A DNA stretch of 64,000 bases from the NCBI RefSeq assembly GCF_054482525.1, contig NZ_CM137006.1, one strand, 5' to 3'. The first letter of the stretch is position 1, and every line of letters begins with the position of its first letter. Below are positions 472 through 20,396 of this stretch, in pieces. A program made the position numbers and the translations under genes. Below the pieces are notes generated by a model that was not told the origin of the DNA, made no database searches, and worked only from the letters and a program-made list of their open reading frames with translations.

Positions 472-494
472 GATAACTAAAATGGCTAGTTATC
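472..494. promoter_or_regulatory. Operator-like palindrome GATAACTA-N7-TAGTTATC in the divergent promoter region between orf98 and the 96-aa gene (recurs at +8743 multiples)
   Basis: Perfect 8-bp inverted repeat with 7-bp spacer, flanked by direct CACTATA repeats (456-462, 494-500), about 25 bp upstream of the ATG at 519. Confidence 0.4.
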
Positions 495-518
495 ACTATA
501 CCTCTAAAGGATAAAATA

Positions 519-809
519 ATGGCTGACTTCTACATAACAGCAGTAAAATATGATGAAAATCATGAACATATCGTTAAGGTTAAAACACGGCAACGAGTTG
601 ATGGTAAGGTTAAAGCACCAAGCATCAATTCTCGCCAATTTATCGTCGAATTGATTAATACCGGAAAGGTATCATTTTGGACTGGATTACAGGATAGCGA
701 AGGACGATGGGGAAAAGGGGCTGACGTGACCGTAACCTCTACTGGTTTCCTGACTACATCACCAAATAATACCACTCGGGATAACCTCGGCGAATTGCCT
801 GAATTTTAA
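519..809 (+). CDS. Hypothetical small protein (96 aa), possibly DUF3892-like
   Basis: AAAGG Shine-Dalgarno 8 nt upstream; the DUF3892 assignment rests on a recalled pattern only (N-terminal Y-I-T-x-V, H-x-H-I, C-terminal DNL-x-x-LPE) and needs an HMM search. Confidence 0.5.
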   Translation: MADFYITAVKYDENHEHIVKVKTRQRVDGKVKAPSINSRQFIVELINTGKVSFWTGLQDSEGRWGKGADVTVTSTGFLTTSPNNTTRDNLGELPEF

Positions 810-817
810 CCAAAAAT

Positions 818-850
818 CAAACGTGCAGTGTAGGTAATACTGCACGTTTG
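818..850. terminator. Stem-loop (11-bp stem) between convergent 96-aa gene and HTH gene; likely bidirectional terminator (recurs per copy)
   Basis: CAAACGTGCAG-N11-CTGCACGTTTG; T-run on the minus-strand side (ATTTTTGG). Confidence 0.55.
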
Positions 851-873
851 TCTCATTCCTGAGACTCTACCTT

Positions 874-1320
874 TTACTGTTCATCGCCAGTGATTAATTT
901 TCTGGTTAACATCTTTGCACTGTAGCTATATGAACTTAAAGCAGAAACCTGTCTTGCAAGTGATATGATATCTTGCTTGTCCAATGTCCTGATGTTCCAG
1001 ATAATGAAGTTATGGGCATCAGTGGTTTCTTTGTCAGTGTAACCATCTGCTGAAGTGATCAACTTTCTTTCTGTTGCGTCTTCTTTAACCGCAAGTGCAT
1101 CACCATGAGCCAAGGTGTTTAAATCCGTACCAGTGATTTTTGCGATTTCGATCACATCACTGAACTTAGGTTCTGTTTTAGCAGTCGCTATCCTAACAAG
1201 TGTCCTTACGTTGATGCCGGTTTTGTCTGCGACTTCTTCGTATGTCCCATGCTCCAGGATAGCTTTCCGTATTCTTTCTGCTCGCTTGCTATCAGCCATA
1301 ACATACAACTCTCGATTCAT
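874..1320 (-). CDS. HTH (XRE/Cro-C1-type) transcriptional regulator, candidate prophage repressor
   Basis: 148 aa; helix-turn-helix signature around residues 26-46 (TYEEVADKTGINVRTLVRIA); GGAG Shine-Dalgarno 9 nt upstream; divergent from gII across an operator-rich intergenic region. Confidence 0.7.
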   Translation of the reverse strand: MNRELYVMADSKRAERIRKAILEHGTYEEVADKTGINVRTLVRIATAKTEPKFSDVIEIAKITGTDLNTLAHGDALAVKEDATERKLITSADGYTDKETTDAHNFIIWNIRTLDKQDIISLARQVSALSSYSYSAKMLTRKLITGDEQ

Positions 1321-1364
1321 CTTAGGTGCTCCAGTTTACATCACTCTTTTTAGATGCTTTTTTT

Positions 1365-1442
1365 CATGGACAAATATGTCCTTAAAAACAAGACATCGTA
1401 TTGACAACAGATCTCAACATGCTTAGCATTTATTTGTCCATG
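1365..1442. promoter_or_regulatory. Candidate operator pair in the HTH-gII divergent intergenic region (recurs per copy)
   Basis: 12-mer TATTTGTCCATG at 1431-1442 with its reverse complement at 1365-1377; embedded palindrome GGACA-N4-TGTCC at 1368-1381; a degenerate third copy near 1455-1472. Confidence 0.45.
1401..1429 (+). promoter_or_regulatory. Candidate sigma70 promoter for gII (TTGACA-17 bp-TAGCAT)
   Basis: Consensus -35 hexamer at 1401-1406, 17-bp spacer, -10-like TAGCAT at 1424-1429; operator 12-mer lies at the predicted start region. Confidence 0.35.
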
Positions 1443-1526
1443 ACTGAAAGACACATTTGTCTATTGACATGGTAAATACAGGTAAAAGTCATTTTGATTC
1501 ATGTTTACTTGACTGCTGAGACACTT

Positions 1527-2579
1527 ATGATCGACTGGTTTACCGGAATCCTGCCTTGCACACACCGACCGTTACCGGCCGGTAGCGTCGTCAGCGTTGA
1601 TGCTGATGGTGCGGTGGAGTGGGAAACAGTAAAACGGTTGACCGTTCGCGGTTCGTATGAATCAACGATGAAAGTAAGATCTGTTGGATCTGATGGCGAA
1701 GGTCGGGCAACACATCTTTATATTGATGGGAATCCTTCAAAATTCCTTCAGGGACATTCTGTTATTGGTTCTGATGATTTGCAGGGACTGGTATTAACCG
1801 TATACGCAAGAATACTGGCATTACTTCATATTCCTCATGATCTCCCGTCATATCGTCAGGTAATGTCTGGTCAGTATAAGATTTCCCGTATTGATATTAA
1901 TTATATGTATTCATTGTCAACACTGGAAAATGTCCGTGCATGGTTATATGCCGCAGAATTTAAAGCGAAAACTCGCCATGGTCGCGCCTGTGGTAAAGGT
2001 GGCACTGTTTACTTAGGGAAAAACTCCCGTCGTTGGAGCCTGAAATTTTATTCAAAATATGATGAGCATATATCTGGCAAAAAAGGGCACCAGATGGCAG
2101 ACGAATTCGTTAAAGCAGGTTTACTGGACTGGTCAAAAGATAAATTACGCATTGAATTAACATTAAGAACAACTGAATTAATTGATTTGAATCTTACGCT
2201 TGGTAATAGCTGGAATATTCAGACGCCCAATAAATTATTCTCTGACTATGTAGGGAGAATAGAAATGAATCAAAATACTATATTAACTGATGAAAAAATA
2301 ATTAATCTCCCAAGAAAAATACAGTCTACATATTTATTGTGGAAGCAGGGCGCGAACATGAAAGAGATGTTACCGAAACCTACATTCTACCGACACCGTA
2401 AAGAATTACTTTCTTTCGGAATAGATATTAACTTTTATTGTGAGTCACCGGATTCTAATAACGTTGTTCCGTTGGTTCGTATTCTTGAAGCCAAACCGGC
2501 CAAAATTCCATCATGGTTTTATGAGAAAGGTTTAATTTTCGATCATAACCGTATTTCACATGCCAGTAACTGGTATTAA
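1527..2579 (+). CDS. gII: Rolling-circle replication initiator, gene II protein homologue
   Basis: N-terminus MIDWF and C-terminal block NNVVPLVR align with M13 gIIp as recalled; alternative in-frame ATG at 1494 (ORF-track start). Confidence 0.85.
   Translation: MIDWFTGILPCTHRPLPAGSVVSVDADGAVEWETVKRLTVRGSYESTMKVRSVGSDGEGRATHLYIDGNPSKFLQGHSVIGSDDLQGLVLTVYARILALLHIPHDLPSYRQVMSGQYKISRIDINYMYSLSTLENVRAWLYAAEFKAKTRHGRACGKGGTVYLGKNSRRWSLKFYSKYDEHISGKKGHQMADEFVKAGLLDWSKDKLRIELTLRTTELIDLNLTLGNSWNIQTPNKLFSDYVGRIEMNQNTILTDEKIINLPRKIQSTYLLWKQGANMKEMLPKPTFYRHRKELLSFGIDINFYCESPDSNNVVPLVRILEAKPAKIPSWFYEKGLIFDHNRISHASNWY
2265..2579 (+). CDS. gX: Gene X-like protein, in-frame internal restart within gII
   Basis: Internal ATG preceded by GGGAG (9 nt); MNQNT start aligns with the M13 gX start (EGDSMNIYDD versus GRIEMNQNT). 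Confidence 0.55.
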   Translation: MNQNTILTDEKIINLPRKIQSTYLLWKQGANMKEMLPKPTFYRHRKELLSFGIDINFYCESPDSNNVVPLVRILEAKPAKIPSWFYEKGLIFDHNRISHASNWY

Positions 2580-2590
2580 AGGAGAGTGAT

Positions 2591-2908
2591 ATGTCTAATT
2601 ATGGTCTTTTTGTAAAAGGTAAAATGCTTGGTGCTCGCCAGCGTAATAAGGTCAATGGTCAGGGATACTATAATGAAATTGGTATTGGCTTAGAGATCCC
2701 TGATGGTTTTGGCGGCACTAAGCAAGACCAGATTATTATTCGTGTTTCTCAGGCTCTTGTTAATGCCGGTGTAATGAATCAGGCAAATAATCTTATCGGT
2801 AAGTTAGTCCAGATACCTGTATATGTTCGTGTCTGGTCAATGGAAGGTAGAGAAGGAGTAACTTATAATATTTCATCTGACGGTGGAATCACTGAAATAA
2901 AAGGTTAA
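2591..2908 (+). CDS. gV: Putative ssDNA-binding protein, gene V analogue
   Basis: 105-aa ORF immediately after gII with AAGGAGAG Shine-Dalgarno; Ff-like position; only weak motif resemblance to M13 gVp. Confidence 0.55.
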   Translation: MSNYGLFVKGKMLGARQRNKVNGQGYYNEIGIGLEIPDGFGGTKQDQIIIRVSQALVNAGVMNQANNLIGKLVQIPVYVRVWSMEGREGVTYNISSDGGITEIKG

Positions 2909-2910
2909 AT

Positions 2911-2997
2911 ATGGCTGATGTTATACAAATATTAATAGCGTCAGGCATTGTTATCTCTTTTGGCCTCGGCGCAATTACTGCGGGGGTTTTTCGTTAA
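2911..2997 (+). CDS. gVII: Minor coat protein, gene VII analogue (28 aa)
   Basis: MADVIQILIASGIVISFGLGAITAGVFR; hydrophobic; C-terminal half resembles M13 gVIIp; too short for the ORF track. Confidence 0.5.
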   Translation: MADVIQILIASGIVISFGLGAITAGVFR

Positions 2998-3092
2998 TGT
3001 ATATAGCTTATTTCTTCGGGGCTTATACCTTTGGTTTTGCCCTTTTCTACGCGGTCGGTTCATTTAAATCATTTTCTGACCGATTAATGTAA
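2997..3092 (+). CDS. gIX: Minor coat protein, gene IX analogue (31 aa)
   Basis: MYIAYFFGAYTFGFALFYAVGSFKSFSDRLM; start overlaps the gVII stop by 1 nt (TAATG), as is typical for Ff VII/IX coupling. Confidence 0.45.
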   Translation: MYIAYFFGAYTFGFALFYAVGSFKSFSDRLM

Positions 3093-3116
3093 TGTAACTT
3101 TAATGGAGTTATTTAT

Positions 3117-3359
3117 ATGAAAGTTTTGTCTTTTGTTAAATCTAAAATTGCAGTAGCTTCAACAGCGCTTTTTGTTTCTGCGAGTTCTTTTGCGGCAGCT
3201 GAGTCTACAGGCGGGACTGATTATGCAGGTCAGGCAATGGATGCATTACTGACTCAGGCAAATGATCTTATTGGTAAAGTATGGCCTGTCGTTGTTGCTG
3301 TGGTTGGTGCTGGCCTTGCCATTCGTATTTTTAAAAAATTCGCTTCTAAAGCAGTTTAA
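3117..3359 (+). CDS. gVIII: Major coat protein precursor
   Basis: 80 aa; signal peptide ending SFAAAE, acidic N-terminus, hydrophobic core, basic C-terminus [12 protein letters not shown] (inovirus major-coat signature); GGAG Shine-Dalgarno. Confidence 0.85.
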
Positions 3360-3369
3360 AATTCACTCA

Positions 3370-3392
3370 GGGGCATTTGTTGCCCCTTTATT
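3370..3392 (+). terminator. Rho-independent terminator after the major coat gene (recurs per copy)
   Basis: GGGGCA-tttgt-TGCCCC followed by TTTATT; same position as the strong terminator after gVIII in Ff phages. Confidence 0.65.
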
Positions 3393-3405
3393 AAATTGGG
3401 TTATT

Positions 3406-4650
3406 ATGAAAAGGAAAATATTAATTACTTTCTCTATTTTTATTTCTTCTTTTTCATATGCTGATTCATGGGAAAGCATTACTAAATCTACTTTTCAAAG
3501 CTCTGCATATGCTGAAAGTAAGCAAATAACCAACCAAGATGGTACTAAACAAACTGTTTATTATATTGATGCAACCATGCAGGCTTCTTCCTGTCAGGGA
3601 GCTAAAGACAGTGCTCAGGTTGTTTTTAATCAGGTTAAACCAACTTATGAGGGAATGTGGCCTAACTCTGAATTCCGTCTTGTATTTTCTGACGCTTGTA
3701 CTTACAGCGACTCTCCAGGCCAGAAAGATAAATACTGGACTTTAACTGCTTATATTATAGGTGATATTCAACGATCTATTCCTGATGAAAAACCTTCCGA
3801 GCCTACGCCTGAAGAGATTTGTGAAGCTAAACCCCCCGAAGAAGGTGTATTCAATAATGTCTATTCTTATGACGGTGATCGTTATATTTATTATAACGGT
3901 TGTGAATATGAGGCCACTGGCGTCATTGTTTGCCAGAGTGATAGCACTGTTTGTGCTGCGACATGGAAGCCTACCGGAACTGTAGCCGCACCTTCAGATA
4001 AGCCTTCTTCTCCTGTTGGCGATGGCGGTGATACTGGAGGCGGGGATACGGGTGATGGTGATACCGGTGGAGGTGATACAGGCGGTGGTAACCCAAGTGG
4101 CAGTTCTGGCGGTGGTAATGGCTCAAGTATCACCAAAGGAGATATTCAGTCAGCTATCGAAGGTGCTTCACCTAAAATTGCCAGTGAGATTCATGATAAG
4201 TTAACAGAAAAAGATACCTCATCTGATGATAAAAAGTCGGCTGATGAACAGACTAAAAATAATATAAATCGTCTTGTTGACTCTATAAATAACCTTACTC
4301 GCGGAGCCGGACGTTTTGCTGATCCTTCTGGCGGCGATTCCCGTTATGGGGAGGGGGGGTCTGAATTAGATAGCGCTTCCACTTTAGCTGAATCTGAATT
4401 AGGAATTGCAAAGGATTCTCATGGTGCGTTATGGGAGGCTTTCTTAAATAAAGGTGCTATGTTGCCCAATTTACCTAATGGTAATGGTTGTTCTGATTTT
4501 ATTATTTTCCCCGGAGAGGTTTATCAGATCGATATTGGCTGCGATAAATTACTGACTATTAAAAATGCTCTTTCATGGGTTTTTTATTGCCTTACGTTCT
4601 GGTATGTATTTACTTCTTTAACTTCATTGCTTCGTAAAGGTGGTGAGTGA
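3406..4650 (+). CDS. gIII: Minor coat / adsorption protein pIII
   Basis: Signal peptide [19 protein letters not shown], Cys-containing N-terminal domains, Gly/Asp-rich linker repeats, C-terminal membrane anchor; ORF-track ORF 3262-4650 trimmed to the first in-frame ATG after the gVIII terminator. Confidence 0.8.
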
Positions 4651-4991
4651 TGCCTTTATTATTAGGTATTCCTGCATTGTTGCGTTTTCTTATTGGTCTT
4701 GTTCCTTTACTTATTGGCTATGCGGCAAGTTTTTTAGCTCGGCTTGCAACCAAAACAGGTTTAATAGCGGTTGCATTGGTTGCGCTAATTACAACAACTG
4801 TTACGCTTTTAATGCAGTACCTTGCTGAGGTCATGTATATCGGGTTACCCGCTGATTTTTCACATCTAATGGCGTCTGTACTGCCTGACCATTTTCAGGC
4901 GTGTGTTAACGTTATTATGGTTACTCGTATCAGTGTTTTTGTTTTCGATTTAAAACAAAAATTTCTTGATTATGCAAACAGGGTGATTTAA
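4647..4991 (+). CDS. gVI: Minor coat protein pVI
   Basis: 114 aa, hydrophobic; [15 protein letters not shown] aligns with M13 pVI MPVLLGIPLLLRFL. Confidence 0.8.
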
Positions 4992-6086
4992 ATGGCGGTT
5001 CATGTAGTAACAGGCAAATTAGGCTCAGGCAAGACACTGGTTAGTGTTTCCAGAATACAGGAAAGACTGGCTAAGGGTTGTCCTGTTGCCACTAATCTTG
5101 ATCTTAAATTGCATAATATGCCTATGGTTGGGCGTTATGCTAAAAAAACGCGCGTTATTCGTGTTCCTGATAAGCCTTCATTAAATGATTTACTGGCTAT
5201 TGGTATTGGAAATACATCTTACGATGAATCCCGCAATGGCCTTTTAGTGCTTGATGAATGTGGTACTTGGTTTAATTCCCGTTCATGGGGTGATAAAGAC
5301 AGACAACCTGTTATTGACTGGTTTTTACATGCCCGTAAATTAGGTTGGGATATTATTTTTTTGATTCAGGATATTTCGATAATGGATAAGCAAGCTCGTC
5401 TGGCACTTGCTGAACATGTTGTTTATTGTCGCCGTTCAGATAAATTAAACATTCCTTTTATTGGCTCTATTATAAATTTAGTTTCAGGAGCGCGATTTTC
5501 TTTACCAAAGGTACACTTTGGTATTGTTAAATATGGTGATAACGTTAATTCAATTACTGTTGATAAATGGATATACACCGGAAAATCATTATATTCCGCC
5601 TACAATACAAAACAGGTTTTTACTGATAACTATCCGCATGGTGCTTATTCTCTTTTACCGCCATTTATTACACATGGCCAGTTTTCTGTTCACAAAGGAC
5701 TTAATTATTATATGCGCCTCACGAAAATTTATTTCCGAAAATCAAACCGATTAATATTAATGCTTTCATTTTTTGCCTTTGGGCTTGGGCTTGGCTTCTG
5801 GCTACAATCTGGTAAGAATGCCGATGAAATTTCGGCTATTAAATCAGTTCATGCTGAACAGGTGAGGGCGGTAACACCTGACAGTACCAGCGATTTACCG
5901 AGACTTTCTATTGATTCTTTCTCTCAGCTTGGTTTTGATGTTTCTGTTACGTTTGTTGACGCTAAGGGTATGAAGTACCAGTATTTTGATTTAATTAAAG
6001 ATGGTTATTCCGTTGATATTAAAGATGCCTGCCGAATTGTTATCAGAAAAGGCCATTATTTACAAAGCGTCACCTGTCAGGAGTAA
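4992..6086 (+). CDS. gI: Assembly ATPase pI (Zot-like)
   Basis: 364 aa; Walker A GKLGSGKT; extensive similarity to M13 pI along the length as recalled. Confidence 0.9.
   Translation: MAVHVVTGKLGSGKTLVSVSRIQERLAKGCPVATNLDLKLHNMPMVGRYAKKTRVIRVPDKPSLNDLLAIGIGNTSYDESRNGLLVLDECGTWFNSRSWGDKDRQPVIDWFLHARKLGWDIIFLIQDISIMDKQARLALAEHVVYCRRSDKLNIPFIGSIINLVSGARFSLPKVHFGIVKYGDNVNSITVDKWIYTGKSLYSAYNTKQVFTDNYPHGAYSLLPPFITHGQFSVHKGLNYYMRLTKIYFRKSNRLILMLSFFAFGLGLGFWLQSGKNADEISAIKSVHAEQVRAVTPDSTSDLPRLSIDSFSQLGFDVSVTFVDAKGMKYQYFDLIKDGYSVDIKDACRIVIRKGHYLQSVTCQE
5712..6086 (+). CDS. gXI: pXI-like protein, in-frame internal restart within gI
   Basis: Internal Met at codon 241 (MRLTKIYFRK), the same codon position as M13 pXI (MKLTKIYLKK). 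Confidence 0.5.
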   Translation: MRLTKIYFRKSNRLILMLSFFAFGLGLGFWLQSGKNADEISAIKSVHAEQVRAVTPDSTSDLPRLSIDSFSQLGFDVSVTFVDAKGMKYQYFDLIKDGYSVDIKDACRIVIRKGHYLQSVTCQE

Positions 6087-6093
6087 TATTACT

Positions 6094-7359
6094 ATGCGTT
6101 TATTTTGCATTGCCATCTTATTCATTTATTCTTTTTGTGTTTCTGCTGAAACTGTTAATCTTAATAATTCATCCGTTCGTTCATTTGTCCAGTGGTATTC
6201 ATCAAAAACTGGTAAGCCTGTTATTGTTAACCCCGATGTTAAAGGCTCCGTAACAGTATTTAATGCTGATGTTAATCCCACAAATATTGATGACTTTTTC
6301 AAATCTGTTCTGAATGCTAATGGATTTGTCATGCTTTCTGGTAATCCTGCGGTAGTATCTTTGCCGTCAAAATTACCGTCACAGATGGCATCAGACCCTG
6401 ATGATTCCGATAATCAGTCTTATGACTCTTTTCCGCCAGAGCCATCCTGTCAGCCAGCGCCTGTGGCGCTCACTGTCAGAAATTTTAAGCTGACAAAAGT
6501 ACGAGCGTCTGATGTTCAGCAACTGGTTAAAATTTATCTGGATTCGAATGGCGGGGGTAATGTCGTGGATTATCCCGGCAATAACTCCCTGATTGTATCT
6601 GCGCCTGACGAGCTACTGCCTGTTCTGTCCAATTTCATTAACTCAGTTGATGTTGCCCGTGATCAGGTACTCATTCAATCGCTCATGTTTGAAACCAGTT
6701 TGTCTGATGGTGTTGATTTGTCATTTGCAGCTGGCTCTGCATCCGGCCATAAGGTGGCGGGGGGTTTTAATACTTCTGCGCTGGGTAATGCTCTTTCTAC
6801 GGTGGGCGGCTCTTTTGGTATTTTTGATGGTAACGTGTTGGCGCTGTCTCTGCGTGCTGTCCAGAGTAATTCACGCTCTAAGGTGATTTCAACACCGCGC
6901 ATTCTTACTCAGTCCGGTCAGACTGGTTATATTTCCGTAGGTAAGAATGTGCCGTTTATCACAGGAAAGGTAACGGGTGAATCTGCTGGGGTAAATAATC
7001 CGTTTCAGACTATCGAACGTCATGATGTTGGCGTTTCTCTCAAGGTAACGCCTGTTGTCATGGGGAACGGGCAATTAGTTTTGACCATCGATACCCGCGC
7101 CGATTCAATCAGCAATGATGACCAAGCATCTGATATTATTACTAATCAGCGCCAGATTCAGACCACTGTTCAGATTAAGGATGGCCAGACTCTCTTACTT
7201 GGTGGGTTGATTGATTCATCATCCAGCAATGCTGACCGTTCTGTACCATTTATCAGCAAAATTCCGGTAATTGGCTGGCTTTTCAGGAGTAAAGCTGACA
7301 GTAATGAGCAACGCATTATGTATGTCCTGCTGACTGCTCATATTATTCGTGCGCTTTGA
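6094..7359 (+). CDS. gIV: Secretin pIV (outer-membrane export channel)
   Basis: 421 aa from the ATG with AGGAG Shine-Dalgarno; signal peptide MRLFCIAILFIYSFCVSA; secretin motifs conserved with M13 pIV (e.g. GQNVPFITG-like, VPFISKIPVIG). Confidence 0.9.
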   Translation: MRLFCIAILFIYSFCVSAETVNLNNSSVRSFVQWYSSKTGKPVIVNPDVKGSVTVFNADVNPTNIDDFFKSVLNANGFVMLSGNPAVVSLPSKLPSQMASDPDDSDNQSYDSFPPEPSCQPAPVALTVRNFKLTKVRASDVQQLVKIYLDSNGGGNVVDYPGNNSLIVSAPDELLPVLSNFINSVDVARDQVLIQSLMFETSLSDGVDLSFAAGSASGHKVAGGFNTSALGNALSTVGGSFGIFDGNVLALSLRAVQSNSRSKVISTPRILTQSGQTGYISVGKNVPFITGKVTGESAGVNNPFQTIERHDVGVSLKVTPVVMGNGQLVLTIDTRADSISNDDQASDIITNQRQIQTTVQIKDGQTLLLGGLIDSSSSNADRSVPFISKIPVIGWLFRSKADSNEQRIMYVLLTAHIIRAL

Positions 7360-7402
7360 TGGGGCCGTGGCGGGTGCGTTAAGCCCCGGTATGGCCCCAT
7401 CA
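7357..7402 (+). terminator. Compound hairpin immediately after the secretin gene stop (recurs per copy)
   Basis: TGATGGGGCC ... GGCCCCATCA 10-bp inverted repeat enclosing a GC-rich inner region; start of the phage intergenic region. Confidence 0.4.
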
Positions 7403-7799
7403 AGAGCCAGATTTTACGTCTCACCACGGAGCCTCTATATGGCCTTAAAACTGACAGGATATGAACAGAAAAACATCTTCTAGGTGATTCAATTACTTAG
7501 AGGTTTTTATGTCTGTAAAAAGTAGGGGCGCGATCGACTTCCTGGTGGTCGCCTGAAGTCTTACCGTCGTGTTGGTTCACATTTTACCAGTTGTTCCAAG
7601 TGGTTTGATAAATCACCGTCCTGGTATCGCAATATGATGATGACCCGGCCAGAGCGCCGTGAAGTCAGAAAGCTTCTCAATCAGGTTGTACGTGGCCGTG
7701 ACGCTGACGGCATCGCATTTCCGGTCAGCAACAAGCCATTTGCATGGCGGTGGTGAACATTTTTAGCCGCTAAAACTTCATGCTGACGGAATTATCGAA

Positions 7800-7844
7800 A
7801 ACCCCGTACAGCAACAAAACTTGTTTTTGTTGCTGTACGGGGTT
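7800..7844. other. Perfect 20-bp-stem hairpin (5-nt loop) in the intergenic region: candidate packaging signal and/or minus-strand terminator for orf81 (recurs per copy)
   Basis: AAACCCCGTACAGCAACAAAA-cttgt-TTTTGTTGCTGTACGGGGTT; TTTTC follows on the minus strand. Confidence 0.5.
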
Positions 7845-7906
7845 GGCCAAGCCGCAACAGTACTCTATTTTTCTTTGGAGTTAATTGCGGCGCGGCTAGG
7901 GATGTA

Positions 7907-8152
7907 TCAGACTTTAATCTTAACTACTTTTTCAGTGCCGGTCATAAAACTAACCAGCTTCTTGCGGCCATCGGGATACTCTTTAATGACACATCCTTCT
8001 GGCGTATTTTTTTCAGCGTAATAAATAGGGACGCCACTAAGAAGACAGGCTCGGGCTGCTTCACCGACATCATGTTCTAGTTGCTGCTCGAAAACAGTCA
8101 AGAACTCTGCTTCCTCTGATGGTGTCATTTCAGCTAAATATGATAAGTCCAT
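7907..8152 (-). CDS. orf81, hypothetical accessory protein
   Basis: 81-aa ORF between the intergenic hairpin region and the att site; the 20-bp-stem hairpin at 7800-7844 is followed by a T-run on the minus strand and could terminate it. Confidence 0.45.
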   Translation of the reverse strand: MDLSYLAEMTPSEEAEFLTVFEQQLEHDVGEAARACLLSGVPIYYAEKNTPEGCVIKEYPDGRKKLVSFMTGTEKVVKIKV

Positions 8153-8354
8153 AAATGCTCATGCCTTCTGTAATTCATTGCTTAGTAACAATGATGAACA
8201 GGCCTGATTGGTGAGGTCAGGCTGTTCACTTACTGCTGACAGACATTTGATTCTGATTCGTTTGGAGAAACGGATGATTTTGAATCATTGTCGATAGTAA
8301 CCAGTTGACGGCCAGTGTCAACGATCCCCGCCAGATTCTGCCATCCTTACCATT

Positions 8355-8387
8355 GGTGCGCATAATGTGCTACACGTTATGTTGAAA
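8355..8387 (+). other. Phage att (dif-like) site at copy junction: XerC arm GGTGCGCATAA, 11-bp spacer TGTGCTACACG, XerD-like arm TTATGTTGAAA
   Basis: Perfect match to the XerC-binding arm of E. coli dif; best XerD-like arm (9 of 11) is displaced 5 bp relative to dif geometry. Confidence 0.8.
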
Positions 8388-8420
8388 AGGCCGCTGCGAA
8401 AATAGAACCCCGCAGCGGCC
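8385..8420 (-). terminator. Rho-independent terminator for the minus-strand orf98-orf110 cassette, abutting the att site (recurs per copy)
   Basis: GGCCGCTGCG-N12-CGCAGCGGCC with a T-run on the minus strand (8385-8388). Confidence 0.55.
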
Positions 8421-8454
8421 TCTTTAGCATAACGTCATTGTGCGAACCAATTAT

Positions 8455-8787
8455 TTATTTTTTTGATTTTTGAGTTGCCTCAATTTCTTTTTTTAAACCA
8501 TGAAGGTTTTTATGACCGGTTCCCTTTGGTTGTAACTGTCCCCTTTGTAACTTACTGATTCTATTTCCTCTTTCTGATATTACTATTTCATCATTCAGGG
8601 ATTTTTCAATCAATGCATACAACGCATTGAATACTTTGATGTTTTCTGATTCCCTCAACTCTTCGAGGATTTTACTTAGTTGTAGAAAGTCATTAATTAA
8701 ACTAACGCCATTTTTAGGATCGTAAAACTCCTCATGTCGTTTTAACATCTTTGCAATCTTTTTTTGCTTATCTGTTGCGTTTGACAT
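8455..8787 (-). CDS. orf110, hypothetical accessory protein (second gene of the minus-strand cassette)
   Basis: 110 aa, charged, basic C-terminal tail, no TM segment; 23-bp gap after orf98; followed by a hairpin plus T-run terminator at 8385-8420. Confidence 0.55.
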   Translation of the reverse strand: MSNATDKQKKIAKMLKRHEEFYDPKNGVSLINDFLQLSKILEELRESENIKVFNALYALIEKSLNDEIVISERGNRISKLQRGQLQPKGTGHKNLHGLKKEIEATQKSKK

Positions 8788-8810
8788 TTTCCCTTTCCCT
8801 TCAACTAGAT

Positions 8811-9107
8811 TTAATCATTACATTCAACCGTTGCTACGGTTCCATAATAAGTAATGTAAAGAAAACTTCCATTATTGAACTGGCCAACAGAGGTCGATAC
8901 TTTTACCCCGTAAATGACATTTCCTTGTCTACCTGCAGAATTCACGAACGCATCATAGGCTTCCTGGTGCTCATTTCTCTTGCGCTCCATAAAACCACGA
9001 ATTAAACCTTTATCAGAAATTTCAATAGGATAGGTCTTCTCAATAAATCCATGAATCTCTACTACTTTCATATTGGAGGGCAATGTATCAGTGCTTAACA
9101 CTAACAT
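8811..9107 (-). CDS. orf98 hypothetical accessory protein (copy 2)
   Basis: Repeat of 68-364 at +8743; identical translation. Confidence 0.55.
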   Translation of the reverse strand: MLVLSTDTLPSNMKVVEIHGFIEKTYPIEISDKGLIRGFMERKRNEHQEAYDAFVNSAGRQGNVIYGVKVSTSVGQFNNGSFLYITYYGTVATVECND

Positions 9108-9261
9108 GTTGATTTCCTTTCAATTAAAGAACCTTAATGACATTACTTAATTATTTCATTTCAATCAACAACATATGGGTTGTTTTTTATCATTCCGACA
9201 CTATATCTAGGCGAGATAACTAAAATGGCTAGTTATCACTATACCTCTAAAGGATAAAATA

Positions 9262-9552
9262 ATGGCTGACTTCTACATAACAGCAGTAAAATATGATGAA
9301 AATCATGAACATATCGTTAAGGTTAAAACACGGCAACGAGTTGATGGTAAGGTTAAAGCACCAAGCATCAATTCTCGCCAATTTATCGTCGAATTGATTA
9401 ATACCGGAAAGGTATCATTTTGGACTGGATTACAGGATAGCGAAGGACGATGGGGAAAAGGGGCTGACGTGACCGTAACCTCTACTGGTTTCCTGACTAC
9501 ATCACCAAATAATACCACTCGGGATAACCTCGGCGAATTGCCTGAATTTTAA
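9262..9552 (+). CDS. Hypothetical small protein (96 aa), possibly DUF3892-like (copy 2)
   Basis: Repeat of 519-809 at +8743. Confidence 0.5.
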   Translation: MADFYITAVKYDENHEHIVKVKTRQRVDGKVKAPSINSRQFIVELINTGKVSFWTGLQDSEGRWGKGADVTVTSTGFLTTSPNNTTRDNLGELPEF

Positions 9553-9616
9553 CCAAAAATCAAACGTGCAGTGTAGGTAATACTGCACGTTTGTCTCATT
9601 CCTGAGACTCTACCTT

Positions 9617-10063
9617 TTACTGTTCATCGCCAGTGATTAATTTTCTGGTTAACATCTTTGCACTGTAGCTATATGAACTTAAAGCAGAAACCTGTCTTGC
9701 AAGTGATATGATATCTTGCTTGTCCAATGTCCTGATGTTCCAGATAATGAAGTTATGGGCATCAGTGGTTTCTTTGTCAGTGTAACCATCTGCTGAAGTG
9801 ATCAACTTTCTTTCTGTTGCGTCTTCTTTAACCGCAAGTGCATCACCATGAGCCAAGGTGTTTAAATCCGTACCAGTGATTTTTGCGATTTCGATCACAT
9901 CACTGAACTTAGGTTCTGTTTTAGCAGTCGCTATCCTAACAAGTGTCCTTACGTTGATGCCGGTTTTGTCTGCGACTTCTTCGTATGTCCCATGCTCCAG
10001 GATAGCTTTCCGTATTCTTTCTGCTCGCTTGCTATCAGCCATAACATACAACTCTCGATTCAT
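9617..10063 (-). CDS. HTH regulator, candidate repressor (copy 2)
   Basis: Repeat of 874-1320 at +8743. Confidence 0.7.
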   Translation of the reverse strand: MNRELYVMADSKRAERIRKAILEHGTYEEVADKTGINVRTLVRIATAKTEPKFSDVIEIAKITGTDLNTLAHGDALAVKEDATERKLITSADGYTDKETTDAHNFIIWNIRTLDKQDIISLARQVSALSSYSYSAKMLTRKLITGDEQ

Positions 10064-10269
10064 CTTAGGTGCTCCAGTTTACATCACTCTTTTTAGATGC
10101 TTTTTTTCATGGACAAATATGTCCTTAAAAACAAGACATCGTATTGACAACAGATCTCAACATGCTTAGCATTTATTTGTCCATGACTGAAAGACACATT
10201 TGTCTATTGACATGGTAAATACAGGTAAAAGTCATTTTGATTCATGTTTACTTGACTGCTGAGACACTT

Positions 10270-11322
10270 ATGATCGACTGGTTTACCGGAATCCTGCCTT
10301 GCACACACCGACCGTTACCGGCCGGTAGCGTCGTCAGCGTTGATGCTGATGGTGCGGTGGAGTGGGAAACAGTAAAACGGTTGACCGTTCGCGGTTCGTA
10401 TGAATCAACGATGAAAGTAAGATCTGTTGGATCTGATGGCGAAGGTCGGGCAACACATCTTTATATTGATGGGAATCCTTCAAAATTCCTTCAGGGACAT
10501 TCTGTTATTGGTTCTGATGATTTGCAGGGACTGGTATTAACCGTATACGCAAGAATACTGGCATTACTTCATATTCCTCATGATCTCCCGTCATATCGTC
10601 AGGTAATGTCTGGTCAGTATAAGATTTCCCGTATTGATATTAATTATATGTATTCATTGTCAACACTGGAAAATGTCCGTGCATGGTTATATGCCGCAGA
10701 ATTTAAAGCGAAAACTCGCCATGGTCGCGCCTGTGGTAAAGGTGGCACTGTTTACTTAGGGAAAAACTCCCGTCGTTGGAGCCTGAAATTTTATTCAAAA
10801 TATGATGAGCATATATCTGGCAAAAAAGGGCACCAGATGGCAGACGAATTCGTTAAAGCAGGTTTACTGGACTGGTCAAAAGATAAATTACGCATTGAAT
10901 TAACATTAAGAACAACTGAATTAATTGATTTGAATCTTACGCTTGGTAATAGCTGGAATATTCAGACGCCCAATAAATTATTCTCTGACTATGTAGGGAG
11001 AATAGAAATGAATCAAAATACTATATTAACTGATGAAAAAATAATTAATCTCCCAAGAAAAATACAGTCTACATATTTATTGTGGAAGCAGGGCGCGAAC
11101 ATGAAAGAGATGTTACCGAAACCTACATTCTACCGACACCGTAAAGAATTACTTTCTTTCGGAATAGATATTAACTTTTATTGTGAGTCACCGGATTCTA
11201 ATAACGTTGTTCCGTTGGTTCGTATTCTTGAAGCCAAACCGGCCAAAATTCCATCATGGTTTTATGAGAAAGGTTTAATTTTCGATCATAACCGTATTTC
11301 ACATGCCAGTAACTGGTATTAA
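10270..11322 (+). CDS. gII: Replication initiator gII homologue (copy 2)
   Basis: Repeat of 1527-2579 at +8743; nested gX-like restart at 11008. Confidence 0.85.
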   Translation: MIDWFTGILPCTHRPLPAGSVVSVDADGAVEWETVKRLTVRGSYESTMKVRSVGSDGEGRATHLYIDGNPSKFLQGHSVIGSDDLQGLVLTVYARILALLHIPHDLPSYRQVMSGQYKISRIDINYMYSLSTLENVRAWLYAAEFKAKTRHGRACGKGGTVYLGKNSRRWSLKFYSKYDEHISGKKGHQMADEFVKAGLLDWSKDKLRIELTLRTTELIDLNLTLGNSWNIQTPNKLFSDYVGRIEMNQNTILTDEKIINLPRKIQSTYLLWKQGANMKEMLPKPTFYRHRKELLSFGIDINFYCESPDSNNVVPLVRILEAKPAKIPSWFYEKGLIFDHNRISHASNWY

Positions 11323-11333
11323 AGGAGAGTGAT

Positions 11334-11651
11334 ATGTCTAATTATGGTCTTTTTGTAAAAGGTAAAATGCTTGGTGCTCGCCAGCGTAATAAGGTCAATG
11401 GTCAGGGATACTATAATGAAATTGGTATTGGCTTAGAGATCCCTGATGGTTTTGGCGGCACTAAGCAAGACCAGATTATTATTCGTGTTTCTCAGGCTCT
11501 TGTTAATGCCGGTGTAATGAATCAGGCAAATAATCTTATCGGTAAGTTAGTCCAGATACCTGTATATGTTCGTGTCTGGTCAATGGAAGGTAGAGAAGGA
11601 GTAACTTATAATATTTCATCTGACGGTGGAATCACTGAAATAAAAGGTTAA
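11334..11651 (+). CDS. gV: Putative ssDNA-binding protein gV analogue (copy 2)
   Basis: Repeat at +8743. Confidence 0.55.
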   Translation: MSNYGLFVKGKMLGARQRNKVNGQGYYNEIGIGLEIPDGFGGTKQDQIIIRVSQALVNAGVMNQANNLIGKLVQIPVYVRVWSMEGREGVTYNISSDGGITEIKG

Positions 11652-11653
11652 AT

Positions 11654-11740
11654 ATGGCTGATGTTATACAAATATTAATAGCGTCAGGCATTGTTATCTC
11701 TTTTGGCCTCGGCGCAATTACTGCGGGGGTTTTTCGTTAA
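11654..11740 (+). CDS. gVII: gVII analogue (copy 2)
   Basis: Repeat at +8743. Confidence 0.5.
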   Translation: MADVIQILIASGIVISFGLGAITAGVFR

Positions 11741-11835
11741 TGTATATAGCTTATTTCTTCGGGGCTTATACCTTTGGTTTTGCCCTTTTCTACGCGGTCG
11801 GTTCATTTAAATCATTTTCTGACCGATTAATGTAA
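11740..11835 (+). CDS. gIX: gIX analogue (copy 2)
   Basis: Repeat at +8743. Confidence 0.45.
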   Translation: MYIAYFFGAYTFGFALFYAVGSFKSFSDRLM

Positions 11836-11859
11836 TGTAACTTTAATGGAGTTATTTAT

Positions 11860-12102
11860 ATGAAAGTTTTGTCTTTTGTTAAATCTAAAATTGCAGTAGC
11901 TTCAACAGCGCTTTTTGTTTCTGCGAGTTCTTTTGCGGCAGCTGAGTCTACAGGCGGGACTGATTATGCAGGTCAGGCAATGGATGCATTACTGACTCAG
12001 GCAAATGATCTTATTGGTAAAGTATGGCCTGTCGTTGTTGCTGTGGTTGGTGCTGGCCTTGCCATTCGTATTTTTAAAAAATTCGCTTCTAAAGCAGTTT
12101 AA
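11860..12102 (+). CDS. gVIII: Major coat protein precursor (copy 2)
   Basis: Repeat at +8743. Confidence 0.85.
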
Positions 12103-12148
12103 AATTCACTCAGGGGCATTTGTTGCCCCTTTATTAAATTGGGTTATT

Positions 12149-13393
12149 ATGAAAAGGAAAATATTAATTACTTTCTCTATTTTTATTTCTTCTTTTTCAT
12201 ATGCTGATTCATGGGAAAGCATTACTAAATCTACTTTTCAAAGCTCTGCATATGCTGAAAGTAAGCAAATAACCAACCAAGATGGTACTAAACAAACTGT
12301 TTATTATATTGATGCAACCATGCAGGCTTCTTCCTGTCAGGGAGCTAAAGACAGTGCTCAGGTTGTTTTTAATCAGGTTAAACCAACTTATGAGGGAATG
12401 TGGCCTAACTCTGAATTCCGTCTTGTATTTTCTGACGCTTGTACTTACAGCGACTCTCCAGGCCAGAAAGATAAATACTGGACTTTAACTGCTTATATTA
12501 TAGGTGATATTCAACGATCTATTCCTGATGAAAAACCTTCCGAGCCTACGCCTGAAGAGATTTGTGAAGCTAAACCCCCCGAAGAAGGTGTATTCAATAA
12601 TGTCTATTCTTATGACGGTGATCGTTATATTTATTATAACGGTTGTGAATATGAGGCCACTGGCGTCATTGTTTGCCAGAGTGATAGCACTGTTTGTGCT
12701 GCGACATGGAAGCCTACCGGAACTGTAGCCGCACCTTCAGATAAGCCTTCTTCTCCTGTTGGCGATGGCGGTGATACTGGAGGCGGGGATACGGGTGATG
12801 GTGATACCGGTGGAGGTGATACAGGCGGTGGTAACCCAAGTGGCAGTTCTGGCGGTGGTAATGGCTCAAGTATCACCAAAGGAGATATTCAGTCAGCTAT
12901 CGAAGGTGCTTCACCTAAAATTGCCAGTGAGATTCATGATAAGTTAACAGAAAAAGATACCTCATCTGATGATAAAAAGTCGGCTGATGAACAGACTAAA
13001 AATAATATAAATCGTCTTGTTGACTCTATAAATAACCTTACTCGCGGAGCCGGACGTTTTGCTGATCCTTCTGGCGGCGATTCCCGTTATGGGGAGGGGG
13101 GGTCTGAATTAGATAGCGCTTCCACTTTAGCTGAATCTGAATTAGGAATTGCAAAGGATTCTCATGGTGCGTTATGGGAGGCTTTCTTAAATAAAGGTGC
13201 TATGTTGCCCAATTTACCTAATGGTAATGGTTGTTCTGATTTTATTATTTTCCCCGGAGAGGTTTATCAGATCGATATTGGCTGCGATAAATTACTGACT
13301 ATTAAAAATGCTCTTTCATGGGTTTTTTATTGCCTTACGTTCTGGTATGTATTTACTTCTTTAACTTCATTGCTTCGTAAAGGTGGTGAGTGA
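12149..13393 (+). CDS. gIII: Adsorption protein pIII (copy 2)
   Basis: Repeat at +8743. Confidence 0.8.
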
Positions 13394-13734
13394 TGCCTTT
13401 ATTATTAGGTATTCCTGCATTGTTGCGTTTTCTTATTGGTCTTGTTCCTTTACTTATTGGCTATGCGGCAAGTTTTTTAGCTCGGCTTGCAACCAAAACA
13501 GGTTTAATAGCGGTTGCATTGGTTGCGCTAATTACAACAACTGTTACGCTTTTAATGCAGTACCTTGCTGAGGTCATGTATATCGGGTTACCCGCTGATT
13601 TTTCACATCTAATGGCGTCTGTACTGCCTGACCATTTTCAGGCGTGTGTTAACGTTATTATGGTTACTCGTATCAGTGTTTTTGTTTTCGATTTAAAACA
13701 AAAATTTCTTGATTATGCAAACAGGGTGATTTAA
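13390..13734 (+). CDS. gVI: Minor coat protein pVI (copy 2)
   Basis: Repeat at +8743. Confidence 0.8.
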
Positions 13735-14829
13735 ATGGCGGTTCATGTAGTAACAGGCAAATTAGGCTCAGGCAAGACACTGGTTAGTGTTTCCAGAATA
13801 CAGGAAAGACTGGCTAAGGGTTGTCCTGTTGCCACTAATCTTGATCTTAAATTGCATAATATGCCTATGGTTGGGCGTTATGCTAAAAAAACGCGCGTTA
13901 TTCGTGTTCCTGATAAGCCTTCATTAAATGATTTACTGGCTATTGGTATTGGAAATACATCTTACGATGAATCCCGCAATGGCCTTTTAGTGCTTGATGA
14001 ATGTGGTACTTGGTTTAATTCCCGTTCATGGGGTGATAAAGACAGACAACCTGTTATTGACTGGTTTTTACATGCCCGTAAATTAGGTTGGGATATTATT
14101 TTTTTGATTCAGGATATTTCGATAATGGATAAGCAAGCTCGTCTGGCACTTGCTGAACATGTTGTTTATTGTCGCCGTTCAGATAAATTAAACATTCCTT
14201 TTATTGGCTCTATTATAAATTTAGTTTCAGGAGCGCGATTTTCTTTACCAAAGGTACACTTTGGTATTGTTAAATATGGTGATAACGTTAATTCAATTAC
14301 TGTTGATAAATGGATATACACCGGAAAATCATTATATTCCGCCTACAATACAAAACAGGTTTTTACTGATAACTATCCGCATGGTGCTTATTCTCTTTTA
14401 CCGCCATTTATTACACATGGCCAGTTTTCTGTTCACAAAGGACTTAATTATTATATGCGCCTCACGAAAATTTATTTCCGAAAATCAAACCGATTAATAT
14501 TAATGCTTTCATTTTTTGCCTTTGGGCTTGGGCTTGGCTTCTGGCTACAATCTGGTAAGAATGCCGATGAAATTTCGGCTATTAAATCAGTTCATGCTGA
14601 ACAGGTGAGGGCGGTAACACCTGACAGTACCAGCGATTTACCGAGACTTTCTATTGATTCTTTCTCTCAGCTTGGTTTTGATGTTTCTGTTACGTTTGTT
14701 GACGCTAAGGGTATGAAGTACCAGTATTTTGATTTAATTAAAGATGGTTATTCCGTTGATATTAAAGATGCCTGCCGAATTGTTATCAGAAAAGGCCATT
14801 ATTTACAAAGCGTCACCTGTCAGGAGTAA
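13735..14829 (+). CDS. gI: Assembly ATPase pI (copy 2)
   Basis: Repeat at +8743; nested pXI-like restart at 14455. Confidence 0.9.
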   Translation: MAVHVVTGKLGSGKTLVSVSRIQERLAKGCPVATNLDLKLHNMPMVGRYAKKTRVIRVPDKPSLNDLLAIGIGNTSYDESRNGLLVLDECGTWFNSRSWGDKDRQPVIDWFLHARKLGWDIIFLIQDISIMDKQARLALAEHVVYCRRSDKLNIPFIGSIINLVSGARFSLPKVHFGIVKYGDNVNSITVDKWIYTGKSLYSAYNTKQVFTDNYPHGAYSLLPPFITHGQFSVHKGLNYYMRLTKIYFRKSNRLILMLSFFAFGLGLGFWLQSGKNADEISAIKSVHAEQVRAVTPDSTSDLPRLSIDSFSQLGFDVSVTFVDAKGMKYQYFDLIKDGYSVDIKDACRIVIRKGHYLQSVTCQE

Positions 14830-14836
14830 TATTACT

Positions 14837-16102
14837 ATGCGTTTATTTTGCATTGCCATCTTATTCATTTATTCTTTTTGTGTTTCTGCTGAAACTGTTA
14901 ATCTTAATAATTCATCCGTTCGTTCATTTGTCCAGTGGTATTCATCAAAAACTGGTAAGCCTGTTATTGTTAACCCCGATGTTAAAGGCTCCGTAACAGT
15001 ATTTAATGCTGATGTTAATCCCACAAATATTGATGACTTTTTCAAATCTGTTCTGAATGCTAATGGATTTGTCATGCTTTCTGGTAATCCTGCGGTAGTA
15101 TCTTTGCCGTCAAAATTACCGTCACAGATGGCATCAGACCCTGATGATTCCGATAATCAGTCTTATGACTCTTTTCCGCCAGAGCCATCCTGTCAGCCAG
15201 CGCCTGTGGCGCTCACTGTCAGAAATTTTAAGCTGACAAAAGTACGAGCGTCTGATGTTCAGCAACTGGTTAAAATTTATCTGGATTCGAATGGCGGGGG
15301 TAATGTCGTGGATTATCCCGGCAATAACTCCCTGATTGTATCTGCGCCTGACGAGCTACTGCCTGTTCTGTCCAATTTCATTAACTCAGTTGATGTTGCC
15401 CGTGATCAGGTACTCATTCAATCGCTCATGTTTGAAACCAGTTTGTCTGATGGTGTTGATTTGTCATTTGCAGCTGGCTCTGCATCCGGCCATAAGGTGG
15501 CGGGGGGTTTTAATACTTCTGCGCTGGGTAATGCTCTTTCTACGGTGGGCGGCTCTTTTGGTATTTTTGATGGTAACGTGTTGGCGCTGTCTCTGCGTGC
15601 TGTCCAGAGTAATTCACGCTCTAAGGTGATTTCAACACCGCGCATTCTTACTCAGTCCGGTCAGACTGGTTATATTTCCGTAGGTAAGAATGTGCCGTTT
15701 ATCACAGGAAAGGTAACGGGTGAATCTGCTGGGGTAAATAATCCGTTTCAGACTATCGAACGTCATGATGTTGGCGTTTCTCTCAAGGTAACGCCTGTTG
15801 TCATGGGGAACGGGCAATTAGTTTTGACCATCGATACCCGCGCCGATTCAATCAGCAATGATGACCAAGCATCTGATATTATTACTAATCAGCGCCAGAT
15901 TCAGACCACTGTTCAGATTAAGGATGGCCAGACTCTCTTACTTGGTGGGTTGATTGATTCATCATCCAGCAATGCTGACCGTTCTGTACCATTTATCAGC
16001 AAAATTCCGGTAATTGGCTGGCTTTTCAGGAGTAAAGCTGACAGTAATGAGCAACGCATTATGTATGTCCTGCTGACTGCTCATATTATTCGTGCGCTTT
16101 GA
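14837..16102 (+). CDS. gIV: Secretin pIV (copy 2)
   Basis: Repeat at +8743. Confidence 0.9.
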   Translation: MRLFCIAILFIYSFCVSAETVNLNNSSVRSFVQWYSSKTGKPVIVNPDVKGSVTVFNADVNPTNIDDFFKSVLNANGFVMLSGNPAVVSLPSKLPSQMASDPDDSDNQSYDSFPPEPSCQPAPVALTVRNFKLTKVRASDVQQLVKIYLDSNGGGNVVDYPGNNSLIVSAPDELLPVLSNFINSVDVARDQVLIQSLMFETSLSDGVDLSFAAGSASGHKVAGGFNTSALGNALSTVGGSFGIFDGNVLALSLRAVQSNSRSKVISTPRILTQSGQTGYISVGKNVPFITGKVTGESAGVNNPFQTIERHDVGVSLKVTPVVMGNGQLVLTIDTRADSISNDDQASDIITNQRQIQTTVQIKDGQTLLLGGLIDSSSSNADRSVPFISKIPVIGWLFRSKADSNEQRIMYVLLTAHIIRAL

Positions 16103-20394: not shown

Positions 20395-20396
20395 AT

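Follow-up and report, generated by a model that had tools for sequence, protein, structure and literature searches.

A probable CTXphi-type two-part attachment site in a filamentous prophage array at the dif site of Escherichia coli

Background

How does a filamentous phage come to lie in tandem copies at the dif site of its host when the two arms of its own attachment site seem to be set 11 base pairs (bp) apart? The question is raised by a stretch of 64,000 nucleotides (nt) from contig NZ_CM137006.1 (NCBI RefSeq assembly GCF_054482525.1), referred to here as the window, in which the copies of a prophage adjoin one another through a 33-mer whose arms resemble the XerC and XerD arms of dif. 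The 33-mer is probably one of two parts, attP1, that together make up an attachment site of the kind described for CTXphi, and it is carried by a filamentous prophage of the UPphi group that is related to Ypfphi. What was observed comprises the sequence anatomy of the site, a predicted fold together with its conservation and covariation in relatives, the structure of the junctions, the orientation of the strands and the lack of an integrase.

Results and discussion

The att site at the junctions of the prophage array

The 33-mer GGTGCGCATAATGTGCTACACGTTATGTTGAAA, which is composed of GGTGCGCATAA-TGTGCTACACG-TTATGTTGAAA, occurs exactly three times on the + strand of the window (8355-8387, 17098-17130 and 25841-25873), in each case with 0 mismatches, and 0 matches were obtained in 100 shuffles. 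These three exact copies stand at the junctions of an array, which bears out the initial reading of the 33-mer as a phage att site. The junctions are spaced 8743 bp apart, and the copies compared over 1-8743, 8744-17486 and 17487-26229 are 100% identical, base for base. The tandem array of this 8743-bp prophage (1-34583, + strand) consists of a partial copy (1-8354) and three full units (8355-17097, 17098-25840 and 25841-34583). Since the start of the window falls within another copy, the array holds at least 3.96 copies, and attL, its left-most junction, lies beyond the window.

The array closes on the right with a fourth XerC arm, whose first base is 34584 and which is part of a perfect E. 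coli dif, the reconstituted attR (34584-34611, + strand; GGTGCGCATAA-TGTATA-TTATGTTAAAT) with the E. coli chromosome to its right. The dif of E. coli K12 as listed by Carnoy and Roten has the same sequence (PMC2731167). Positions 34582-64000 are collinear with, and 99.99% identical to, the terminus region of E. coli PCN033. This chromosome is the closest one that lacks the phage and is 100% identical to the right of dif; on the other side of dif it carries an ISNCY fragment and a truncated hipA (L128, 30392-31284), and the left flank of the window array may likewise depart from the standard hipBA arrangement.

Within attP1 (8355-8387, + strand) the XerC arm occupies 8355-8365 and matches dif at 11 of 11 positions, the centre of 11 nt (TGTGCTACACG) occupies 8366-8376, and the XerD-like arm occupies 8377-8387. 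When a 6-bp spacer is assumed, the 11-mer ACACGTTATGT matches the XerD arm of dif at 6 of 11 positions (counted by hand), whereas TTATGTTGAAA, another 5 bp downstream, matches it at 9 of 11. The periodicity of the repeat is lost at 25855/34598 (first mismatch), which is 14 nt inside the site, and the part common to phage and dif is therefore the XerC arm plus TGT. On the XerD side of the centre, phage and dif read ACG versus ATA on the top strand and 5'-CGT versus 5'-TAT on the bottom strand, with no homology. The description in the first-pass annotation of a perfect XerC arm, a poor XerD match at 6-bp spacing, a better one 5 bp further away and a shared stretch limited to the XerC arm and TGT was accurate on each of these points.

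A second, inverted site and a predicted hairpin

In the same annotation the 33-mer was read as a dif-like site in double-stranded form whose XerD arm is displaced, and a second site was overlooked. Both strands of the window were scanned for two-armed dif-like sites with spacers of 4-13 and at most 4 mismatches. The scan returned the attP1 sites, dif, a trivial 11-nt-spacer alternative of dif and one extra inverted site in each copy; shuffled windows gave 0.17 sites on average. This extra site, attP2 (8422-8448, - strand, read from 8448 to 8422), has the sequence GGTTCGCACAA-TGACG-TTATGCTAAAG, in which both arms match dif at 9 of 11 positions around a 5-nt centre, and it recurs on the - strand at 17165-17191 and 25908-25934. 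In every copy the two sites are inverted with respect to each other and 34 nt apart. With centres of 11 nt and 5 nt, the one over-long and the other short, neither attP1 nor attP2 has the canonical layout of a double-stranded Xer site.

The 34 nt between the sites are filled by a GC-rich stem-loop (8389-8420, + strand), with a 10-bp stem formed by GGCCGCTGCG and CGCAGCGGCC (8389-8398 with 8411-8420) and a 12-nt loop. When the + strand from 8345 to 8458 was folded as single-stranded DNA (ssDNA), a predicted energy of -34 kcal/mol was obtained, against -12.3 +/- 2.5 in shuffles (z -8.6). In the predicted fold the XerC arm of attP1 is duplexed with the complement of the XerC arm of attP2, with 3 bp more on the outward side, and the XerD arms are paired likewise. 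In the centre, TG (8366-8367) and ACG (8374-8376) pair with the 5-nt centre of the bottom strand and TGCTAC (8368-8373) is bulged, which leaves the arms 5 paired positions apart, and the GC-rich stem-loop forms the tip. Because six nt of the top strand are looped out in this model, the apparent 11-bp spacer would not be a spacer in the active site. The complete predicted attP(+) hairpin covers 8352-8451 on the gene-sense and presumably packaged + strand, and the annotation should be corrected in that the functional unit would be this 100-nt module and not the 33-mer. No Rfam family matched anywhere in the window.

The repeat could also serve mainly some other function of the (+) strand or of a transcript, as a bidirectional terminator, a packaging signal or a minus-strand origin, in which case its likeness to CTXphi would be secondary and the array would have arisen by replication slippage or homologous recombination. 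Its apical stem is GC-rich, has short T runs flanking it on both strands and stands between the structural operon of the + strand and accessory genes of the - strand, and copy-number changes of Ypfphi by homologous recombination have been suggested in the literature. A terminator of the adjoining orf98-orf110 cassette had indeed been proposed to abut the att site; a stem-loop does adjoin it there, but it is the tip of the hairpin and is conserved, with compensatory changes, whatever gene adjoins. A simple terminator scan of the window did not call the stem-loop, because the stem is followed by no more than 4 T and the loop exceeds the length allowed. The pairing moreover runs well past the GC stem and through both Xer arms, of the four arms one matches dif at 11/11 and three at 9/11, and the crossover, considered below, maps to an arm border. 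As for a packaging signal or minus-strand origin, these are ranked low since other strong hairpins (16099-16146 and 16543-16587) occupy the position after gIV that is expected in phages of the Ff/IKe type. A main role of this kind is therefore judged very improbable, and a CTXphi-type attachment hairpin is preferred, of which the apical stem-loop may additionally act as a putative terminator of transcription in both directions.

Conservation and covariation of the module in relatives

Relatives were gathered by a pattern scan of viral contigs, by a gI-based search and by a scan of species-representative genomes, which together yielded 32 distinct modules, and 31 of these (92-95 nt) were aligned. 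They came from E. coli, Yersinia, Photorhabdus, Pectobacterium, Kluyvera, Lelliottia and Kosakonia. Conservation of the module is about 90% per column, the variable parts being the looped-out central nt and the apical loop. The module remains constant while the adjacent genes differ, and the sequence just past attP2 varies between phages.

For the 31 modules RNAalifold predicted an in-register hairpin as in the window, with 35 pairs, among which 11 show double changes. In a structure drawn by hand over the same alignment, 95.1% of the cells are standard pairs and 12 pairs are changed on both sides, compared with 1.6 in shuffles and at most 2 in slid-partner controls. Double changes affect the XerC arm (C-G to T-A, columns 7/89), the XerD arm (T-A to A-T, 29/72) and the first central position (12/84), as well as most of the apical stem in two modules, L013 and L061.

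Both sites were present in every contig that retains the region among relatives with at least 92% gI identity. At the thresholds used, most relatives with a gI identity of 51-56% yielded no dif-like site, and in the non-integrating I2-2/IKe-like genomes none of the dif-like sites was found. An exact scan of the species-representative genomes for the attP1 of the window plus the stem gave no match, and a scan of these genomes with the conserved stem motif gave 10 loci, including one in Y. pestis. Among 5426 complete E. coli genomes, 636 carry the att module, and 186 of the 636 have at least 80% of it.

Several side observations were made among these relatives. Two different att modules, which differ in arms, stems and centres, stand on a single contig in each of the IMG/VR contigs L013 and L004, one of the differing modules having a GGT centre and a different, fully compensated apical stem; in each contig, different phages may form an array at a single dif. 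About 424 plasmid records, mostly of conjugative plasmids, from E. coli, Klebsiella and Salmonella contain a relic of the module made up of the end of the XerD arm of attP1, the apical stem-loop and attP2. For the E. coli IncF plasmid NZ_CP080157.1 (L129, 6003-6071), the one that was inspected, the relic adjoins a gene of the STM4504/CBY_0614 family, and genes of this family are also found within the prophages of some chromosomal relatives. This suggests that the plasmid relic is either left over from an old phage or a block of captured cargo.

Junctions in relatives and the position of the crossover

The left-most junction had been predicted to consist of the target flank, the XerC arm and the phage centre, and this form was seen in relatives, that of the window array itself being out of reach. 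In E. coli relatives, both single-copy and tandem, the left junction is made up of the hipA-side flank, the XerC arm, TGT, the phage centre and TTATGTTGAAA, and the right junction is dif. An attL of the predicted form was found in L001, L002, L044, L020, Y. pestis (L120) and a Klebsiella pneumoniae plasmid (L130), and in contig L020 the centre of the window itself, TGTGCTACACG, stands behind an E. coli flank. Two further contigs from metagenome-assembled genomes labelled Candidatus Nanosynbacter and Ruminococcaceae (L119 and L126) carry an attL with the E. coli hipA-side flank, which is most likely due to contamination of the bins by Enterobacteriaceae DNA.

The position of the exchange is marked where the XerC arms are polymorphic. 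In Y. pestis NCTC5923 (L120) attL reads GGTGCACATAA-TGTACGACTCG and the inter-copy junction has the phage arm GGTGCGCATAA, and in the K. pneumoniae plasmid NZ_CP132684.1 (L130) attL retains the target arm AGTGCGCTTAA and attR is composed of the phage arm, the target centre and the XerD arm. The crossover is thus confined to the interval from arm position 8, the last marker on the plasmid, to the fourth central base. XerC cleaves after the 11th base of its arm. The mapped interval contains this position, and the crossover appears from the sequences to be located at the border between the XerC arm and the central region.

The plasmid case is also of interest in its own right. The NZ_CP132684.1 prophage is a Ypfphi-like tandem dimer (L130, 1500, 11004 and 20508) in a plasmid dif-like site, AGTGCGCTTAA-TGTACG-TTATGTTAAAT, and because this site is plasmid-borne, the Ypfphi-like phage family can target plasmid Xer sites in addition to chromosomal dif. 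In the Y. pestis case, the dif of strain CO92 has been catalogued (PMC2731167) with the arm GGTGCGCATAA, versus GGTGCACATAA in the attL of NCTC5923 (L120, 5165), and the catalogued CO92 "dif" may be a reconstituted attR with a phage XerC arm.

Since these junctions are exactly what a XerC exchange is expected to leave and cannot tell a single-stranded from a double-stranded substrate, they agree equally with the model of the first-pass annotation, in which double-stranded attP1 alone is the substrate of a VGJphi-like XerC exchange, XerD sits on an arm displaced by 5 bp or is inactive, and attP2 and the stem-loop are an unrelated terminator. VGJphi provides a precedent for double-stranded integration by XerC only. 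Against this, an 11-bp centre puts the arms out of phase by about half a turn of the helix, and the equivalent 12-bp site of CTXphi has been reported to be unsuitable for Xer recombination (PMC4246890). The model also leaves unexplained the existence and register of attP2, which is conserved in all relatives retaining the region, the compensatory changes in both arms, and a module that stays constant beside varying neighbour genes. We regard it as unlikely.

A site with a poor XerD arm would further recall TLCphi, where XerD exchanges first with the help of a phage-encoded activator, and double-stranded attP1 indeed has a poor XerD arm (6/11) when the spacing is the canonical 6 bp. The centre lacks homology on the XerD side, though, the crossover in relatives maps to the XerC side, and no family match among the accessory open reading frames (ORFs) scanned suggests a Xer activation factor of the XafT type. 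A TLCphi-like route is hardly credible on these grounds. Taken by its spacing and its homology, the site has neither the VGJphi-type design, that is, a single site with a centre of 6-7 bp, nor the XerD-side homology of the TLCphi type.

Proposed mode of integration

With CTXphi as the model, integration through the preferred two-part hairpin would proceed as follows. In the circular single-stranded (+) genome, attP1 (8355-8387) would pair with attP2 (8448 to 8422), the GC stem-loop (8389-8420) closing the hairpin, and in this hairpin the XerC and XerD arms would both be duplexed, with 5 paired positions (TG and ACG) between them. Host XerC and XerD would bind both the hairpin and the chromosomal dif to form a synapse, in which XerC would cut the top strands after GGTGCGCATAA and exchange them, the shared TGT stabilising the exchange. 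XerD would make no second exchange, because the bases on its side are without homology, and the resulting pseudo-Holliday junction would be turned into a prophage by replication. The expected products are an attL that joins the target XerC arm to the phage centre and an attR that is an intact dif, open to the next integration; as attR is regenerated as dif, integration could be repeated and would give tandem arrays with attP1 at the internal junctions. The double-stranded prophage has no hairpin substrate, and Xer could therefore not reverse the integration. Tandem copies would in turn permit the production of new (+) strands, as rolling-circle replication could start at the gII origin of one copy and end at that of the following one.

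In this scheme, XerC-only catalysis, the use of ssDNA, replicative resolution and irreversibility are modelled on the precedent of CTXphi (PMC3089051, PMC4246890, PMC3442271). The earlier proposal of an exchange on the XerC side with no XerD exchange and an irreversible outcome can be upheld by analogy as to its conclusion, given the crossover on the XerC side and the lack of XerD-side homology. Its reasoning fails, since irreversibility had been derived from the use of XerC only, and VGJphi uses XerC only yet is reversible (PMC4246890). In the CTXphi model, integration is irreversible because the substrate is a single-stranded hairpin, which the double-stranded prophage no longer contains.

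Several points weigh against the hairpin interpretation. Use of ssDNA by this phage and by the UPphi group is argued by analogy, and double-stranded integration via attP1 would leave identical junction sequences; the left-most junction of the window array itself is outside the window. An inverted pair of Xer-binding sites would resemble an inverted repeat without any folding, and pairing in the apical stem might be selected for the termination of transcription and not for a DNA hairpin. Most of the double compensatory changes stem from two divergent sequences, L013 and L061, and independent variation in attP1 is under-sampled, because many of the 31 modules were collected with a pattern that fixes most of attP1. 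The 5-nt centre of the attP bottom strand is also shorter than the 6-8 bp in the centres of dif, psi and cer, Xer sites that have been characterised.

An additional possibility concerns the junctions within the array. The 33-mer in double-stranded form, whose arms are separated by 11 bp, may function as a Xer target in its own right, at which incoming hairpins would insert between resident copies, and insertion of superinfecting Ypfphi between resident copies has been reported. We consider this distinctly unlikely. If true, XerC and XerD would act on a spacing beyond the known range of 6-8 bp, and in these very common E. coli prophages Xer would drive the growth and turnover of arrays at the internal junctions as well as at the terminal dif.

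Comparison with known systems

The attP1 sequence of CTXphi, a phage of Vibrio cholerae, was confirmed in CTXphi records at 100% identity. In GQ466608 it reads AGTGCGTATTA-TGTGGCGCGGCA-TTATGTTGAGG on the ctxB-sense strand, with a 12-nt centre, and an inverted attP2 with a 7-nt centre follows about 90 nt downstream; in the fold of the (+) strand the arm and TG are paired, followed by a 5-nt bulge, partial pairing and then the XerD arm. The attP(+) of CTXphi, for which a forked attP1/attP2 hairpin has been described (Val et al. 2005, reviewed in PMC3089051 and PMC4246890), and the site of the window are alike in their two inverted dif-like sites, in an over-long attP1 centre that begins with TGT, in a XerD arm of the form TTATGTTGAxx and in a fold that pairs the first two central nt and then bulges 5-6 nt. 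Further common points are a dif-sense strand that coincides with the gene-sense strand, an attR in the form of an intact dif, tandem arrays of prophages and the lack of an integrase. The differences are that the centres have 12/7 nt in CTXphi versus 11/5 nt here, that a branched stem of about 90 nt separates the CTXphi sites versus 34 nt with a single GC stem-loop here, that the arms of the window are tuned to enterobacterial dif, and that the two phages are unrelated beyond the general inovirus gene set. The window site thus looks like a compact version of the CTXphi design.

Closer relatives of the module are those of Ypfphi from Y. pestis and CUS-1phi from E. coli O18:K1:H7, which are 94-95% identical to it over 99 nt. 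Their arms, apical stem and attP2 agree with those of the window, as do the left phage flank gccagattctgccatccttaccatt and the integration in tandem at dif; differences lie in the accessory genes and in the centre, which is TGT-GCTACA-CG in the window versus TGT-ACGACT-CG. That the attP of CUS-1phi and Ypfphi has the features for direct integration of ssDNA (PMC3089051) has been stated in reviews for more than 10 years; both phages have been tabulated with CTXphi (PMC4246890), and for Ypfphi an inverted pair of XerC/XerD sites, 2-4 tandem copies and an inter-copy junction in the form of an imperfect dif have been described (PMC4266046).

The UPphi group of Shapiro and Turner 2020 (PMC7307601), represented by the ECONIH2 and F11 prophages, resembles the window prophage in combining a Lineavirus-like (I2-2/IKe) morphogenesis module with Ypfphi-like gII and gV, in tandem integration at dif and in reverse-oriented accessory ORFs just past the site. 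It differs in that orf110, orf98 and orf96 are specific to the variant in the window. The UPphi paper speaks of "a copy of the dif site" and of dif being incompletely repeated between copies, and the words attP and hairpin occur 0 times in it (PMC7307601).

For VGJphi, a single double-stranded dif-like site with a 7-bp centre has been described, which is used by XerC only and reversibly (PMC4246890). The window site is alike in having homology on the XerC side only and presumably no XerD exchange. In contrast, VGJphi has one site with near-canonical spacing and two recombinogenic junctions, whereas the site here has 11 nt and a second, inverted partner. Ypfphi, CUS-1, VGJphi and CTXphi had been taken as one class in the first-pass annotation; this grouping needs to be divided, as Ypfphi and CUS-1 go with CTXphi and VGJphi is of a different type.

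The mechanism is accordingly one that is already known, no new principle is revealed, and the new points are modest, namely the second site and hairpin in the UPphi group and a different looped-out hexamer. They would extend the CTXphi-type design for integration of ssDNA from Ypfphi and CUS-1phi to the UPphi group. The variants within the family, with centres of 10-11 nt, compensatory changes in the arms and different target XerC arms, would be good substrates for studying XerC and XerD on a bulged hairpin.

Gene content and affiliation of the phage

The inovirus core genes are all located on the + strand (10237-16102 in the first full unit) and comprise gII (10237-11322), a gV-like gene (11334-11651), gVIII (11860-12102), gIII (12143-13393), gVI (13390-13734), the gI/Zot-like gene (13735-14829) and the gIV secretin gene (14834-16102). 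The dif-sense strand of attP1 is on the same strand, attR is downstream, and the + strand of the window aligns to the + strand of the I2-2 phage genome record. In inoviruses the gene-sense strand is the packaged strand.

An accessory and regulatory region of mixed orientation (8455-10063, + and - strands) adjoins attP2. It contains orf110 (8455-8787, - strand), which has no family in any library, orf98 (8811-9107, - strand), with a non-significant Pfam match to a YbjQ-like family (E 0.17), orf96 (9262-9552, + strand), assigned by Pfam to DUF3892 (4e-9), and a divergent helix-turn-helix regulator identified by the family scan (9617-10063, - strand). No integrase or recombinase was found among the ORFs with PHROGs and NCBIfam, which identified replication, structural, assembly and regulator proteins besides small ORFs without assignment. 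Comparison of the accessory ORFs with NCBIfam and PADLOC gave nothing credible, and orf110, orf98 and orf96 matched no known defence family. Because relatives diverge straight after attP2, the region 8452-9560 of each copy is regarded as a cargo hotspot.

The gII and gV proteins are 95% and 98% identical at the amino acid level to those of the Y. pestis Ypfphi prophage (L120). The proteins from gVIII to gIV are not Ypfphi-like; they are 84-95% identical to those of E. coli prophages of the F11/ECONIH2 type (gI 95% and gIV 93% identical to the F11 prophage), and gIV is 26% identical to that of Ypfphi. The phage is therefore a mosaic in which Ypfphi-type replication genes (gII and gV, 10237-11651) and att module (94-98%) are joined to a UPphi/I2-2-like morphogenesis module (11860-16102), and by this gene content and its tandem array at dif it belongs to the UPphi group, with replication and attachment modules of the Ypfphi type.

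At the nt level, the unit is about 86% identical over 68% of its length to ECONIH2 and F11, and 97.8% identical over 79% to the prophage of APEC E19057, the best phage match among complete E. coli genomes. The sole match in the phage collection searched, which is one without Ypfphi, CUS-1 or UPphi records, was phage I2-2, with 75% identity in gene I over 6% of the unit. The IMG/VR contig L046 is 99.9% identical over 7.2 kb.

Just 3' of gIV, each copy has two strong hairpins on the + strand (16099-16146 and 16543-16587), of which one has a 19-bp stem with 84% of its positions paired and the other a perfect 20-bp stem with a 5-nt loop. By analogy of position with Ff/IKe, each is a candidate terminator, packaging signal or minus-strand origin.

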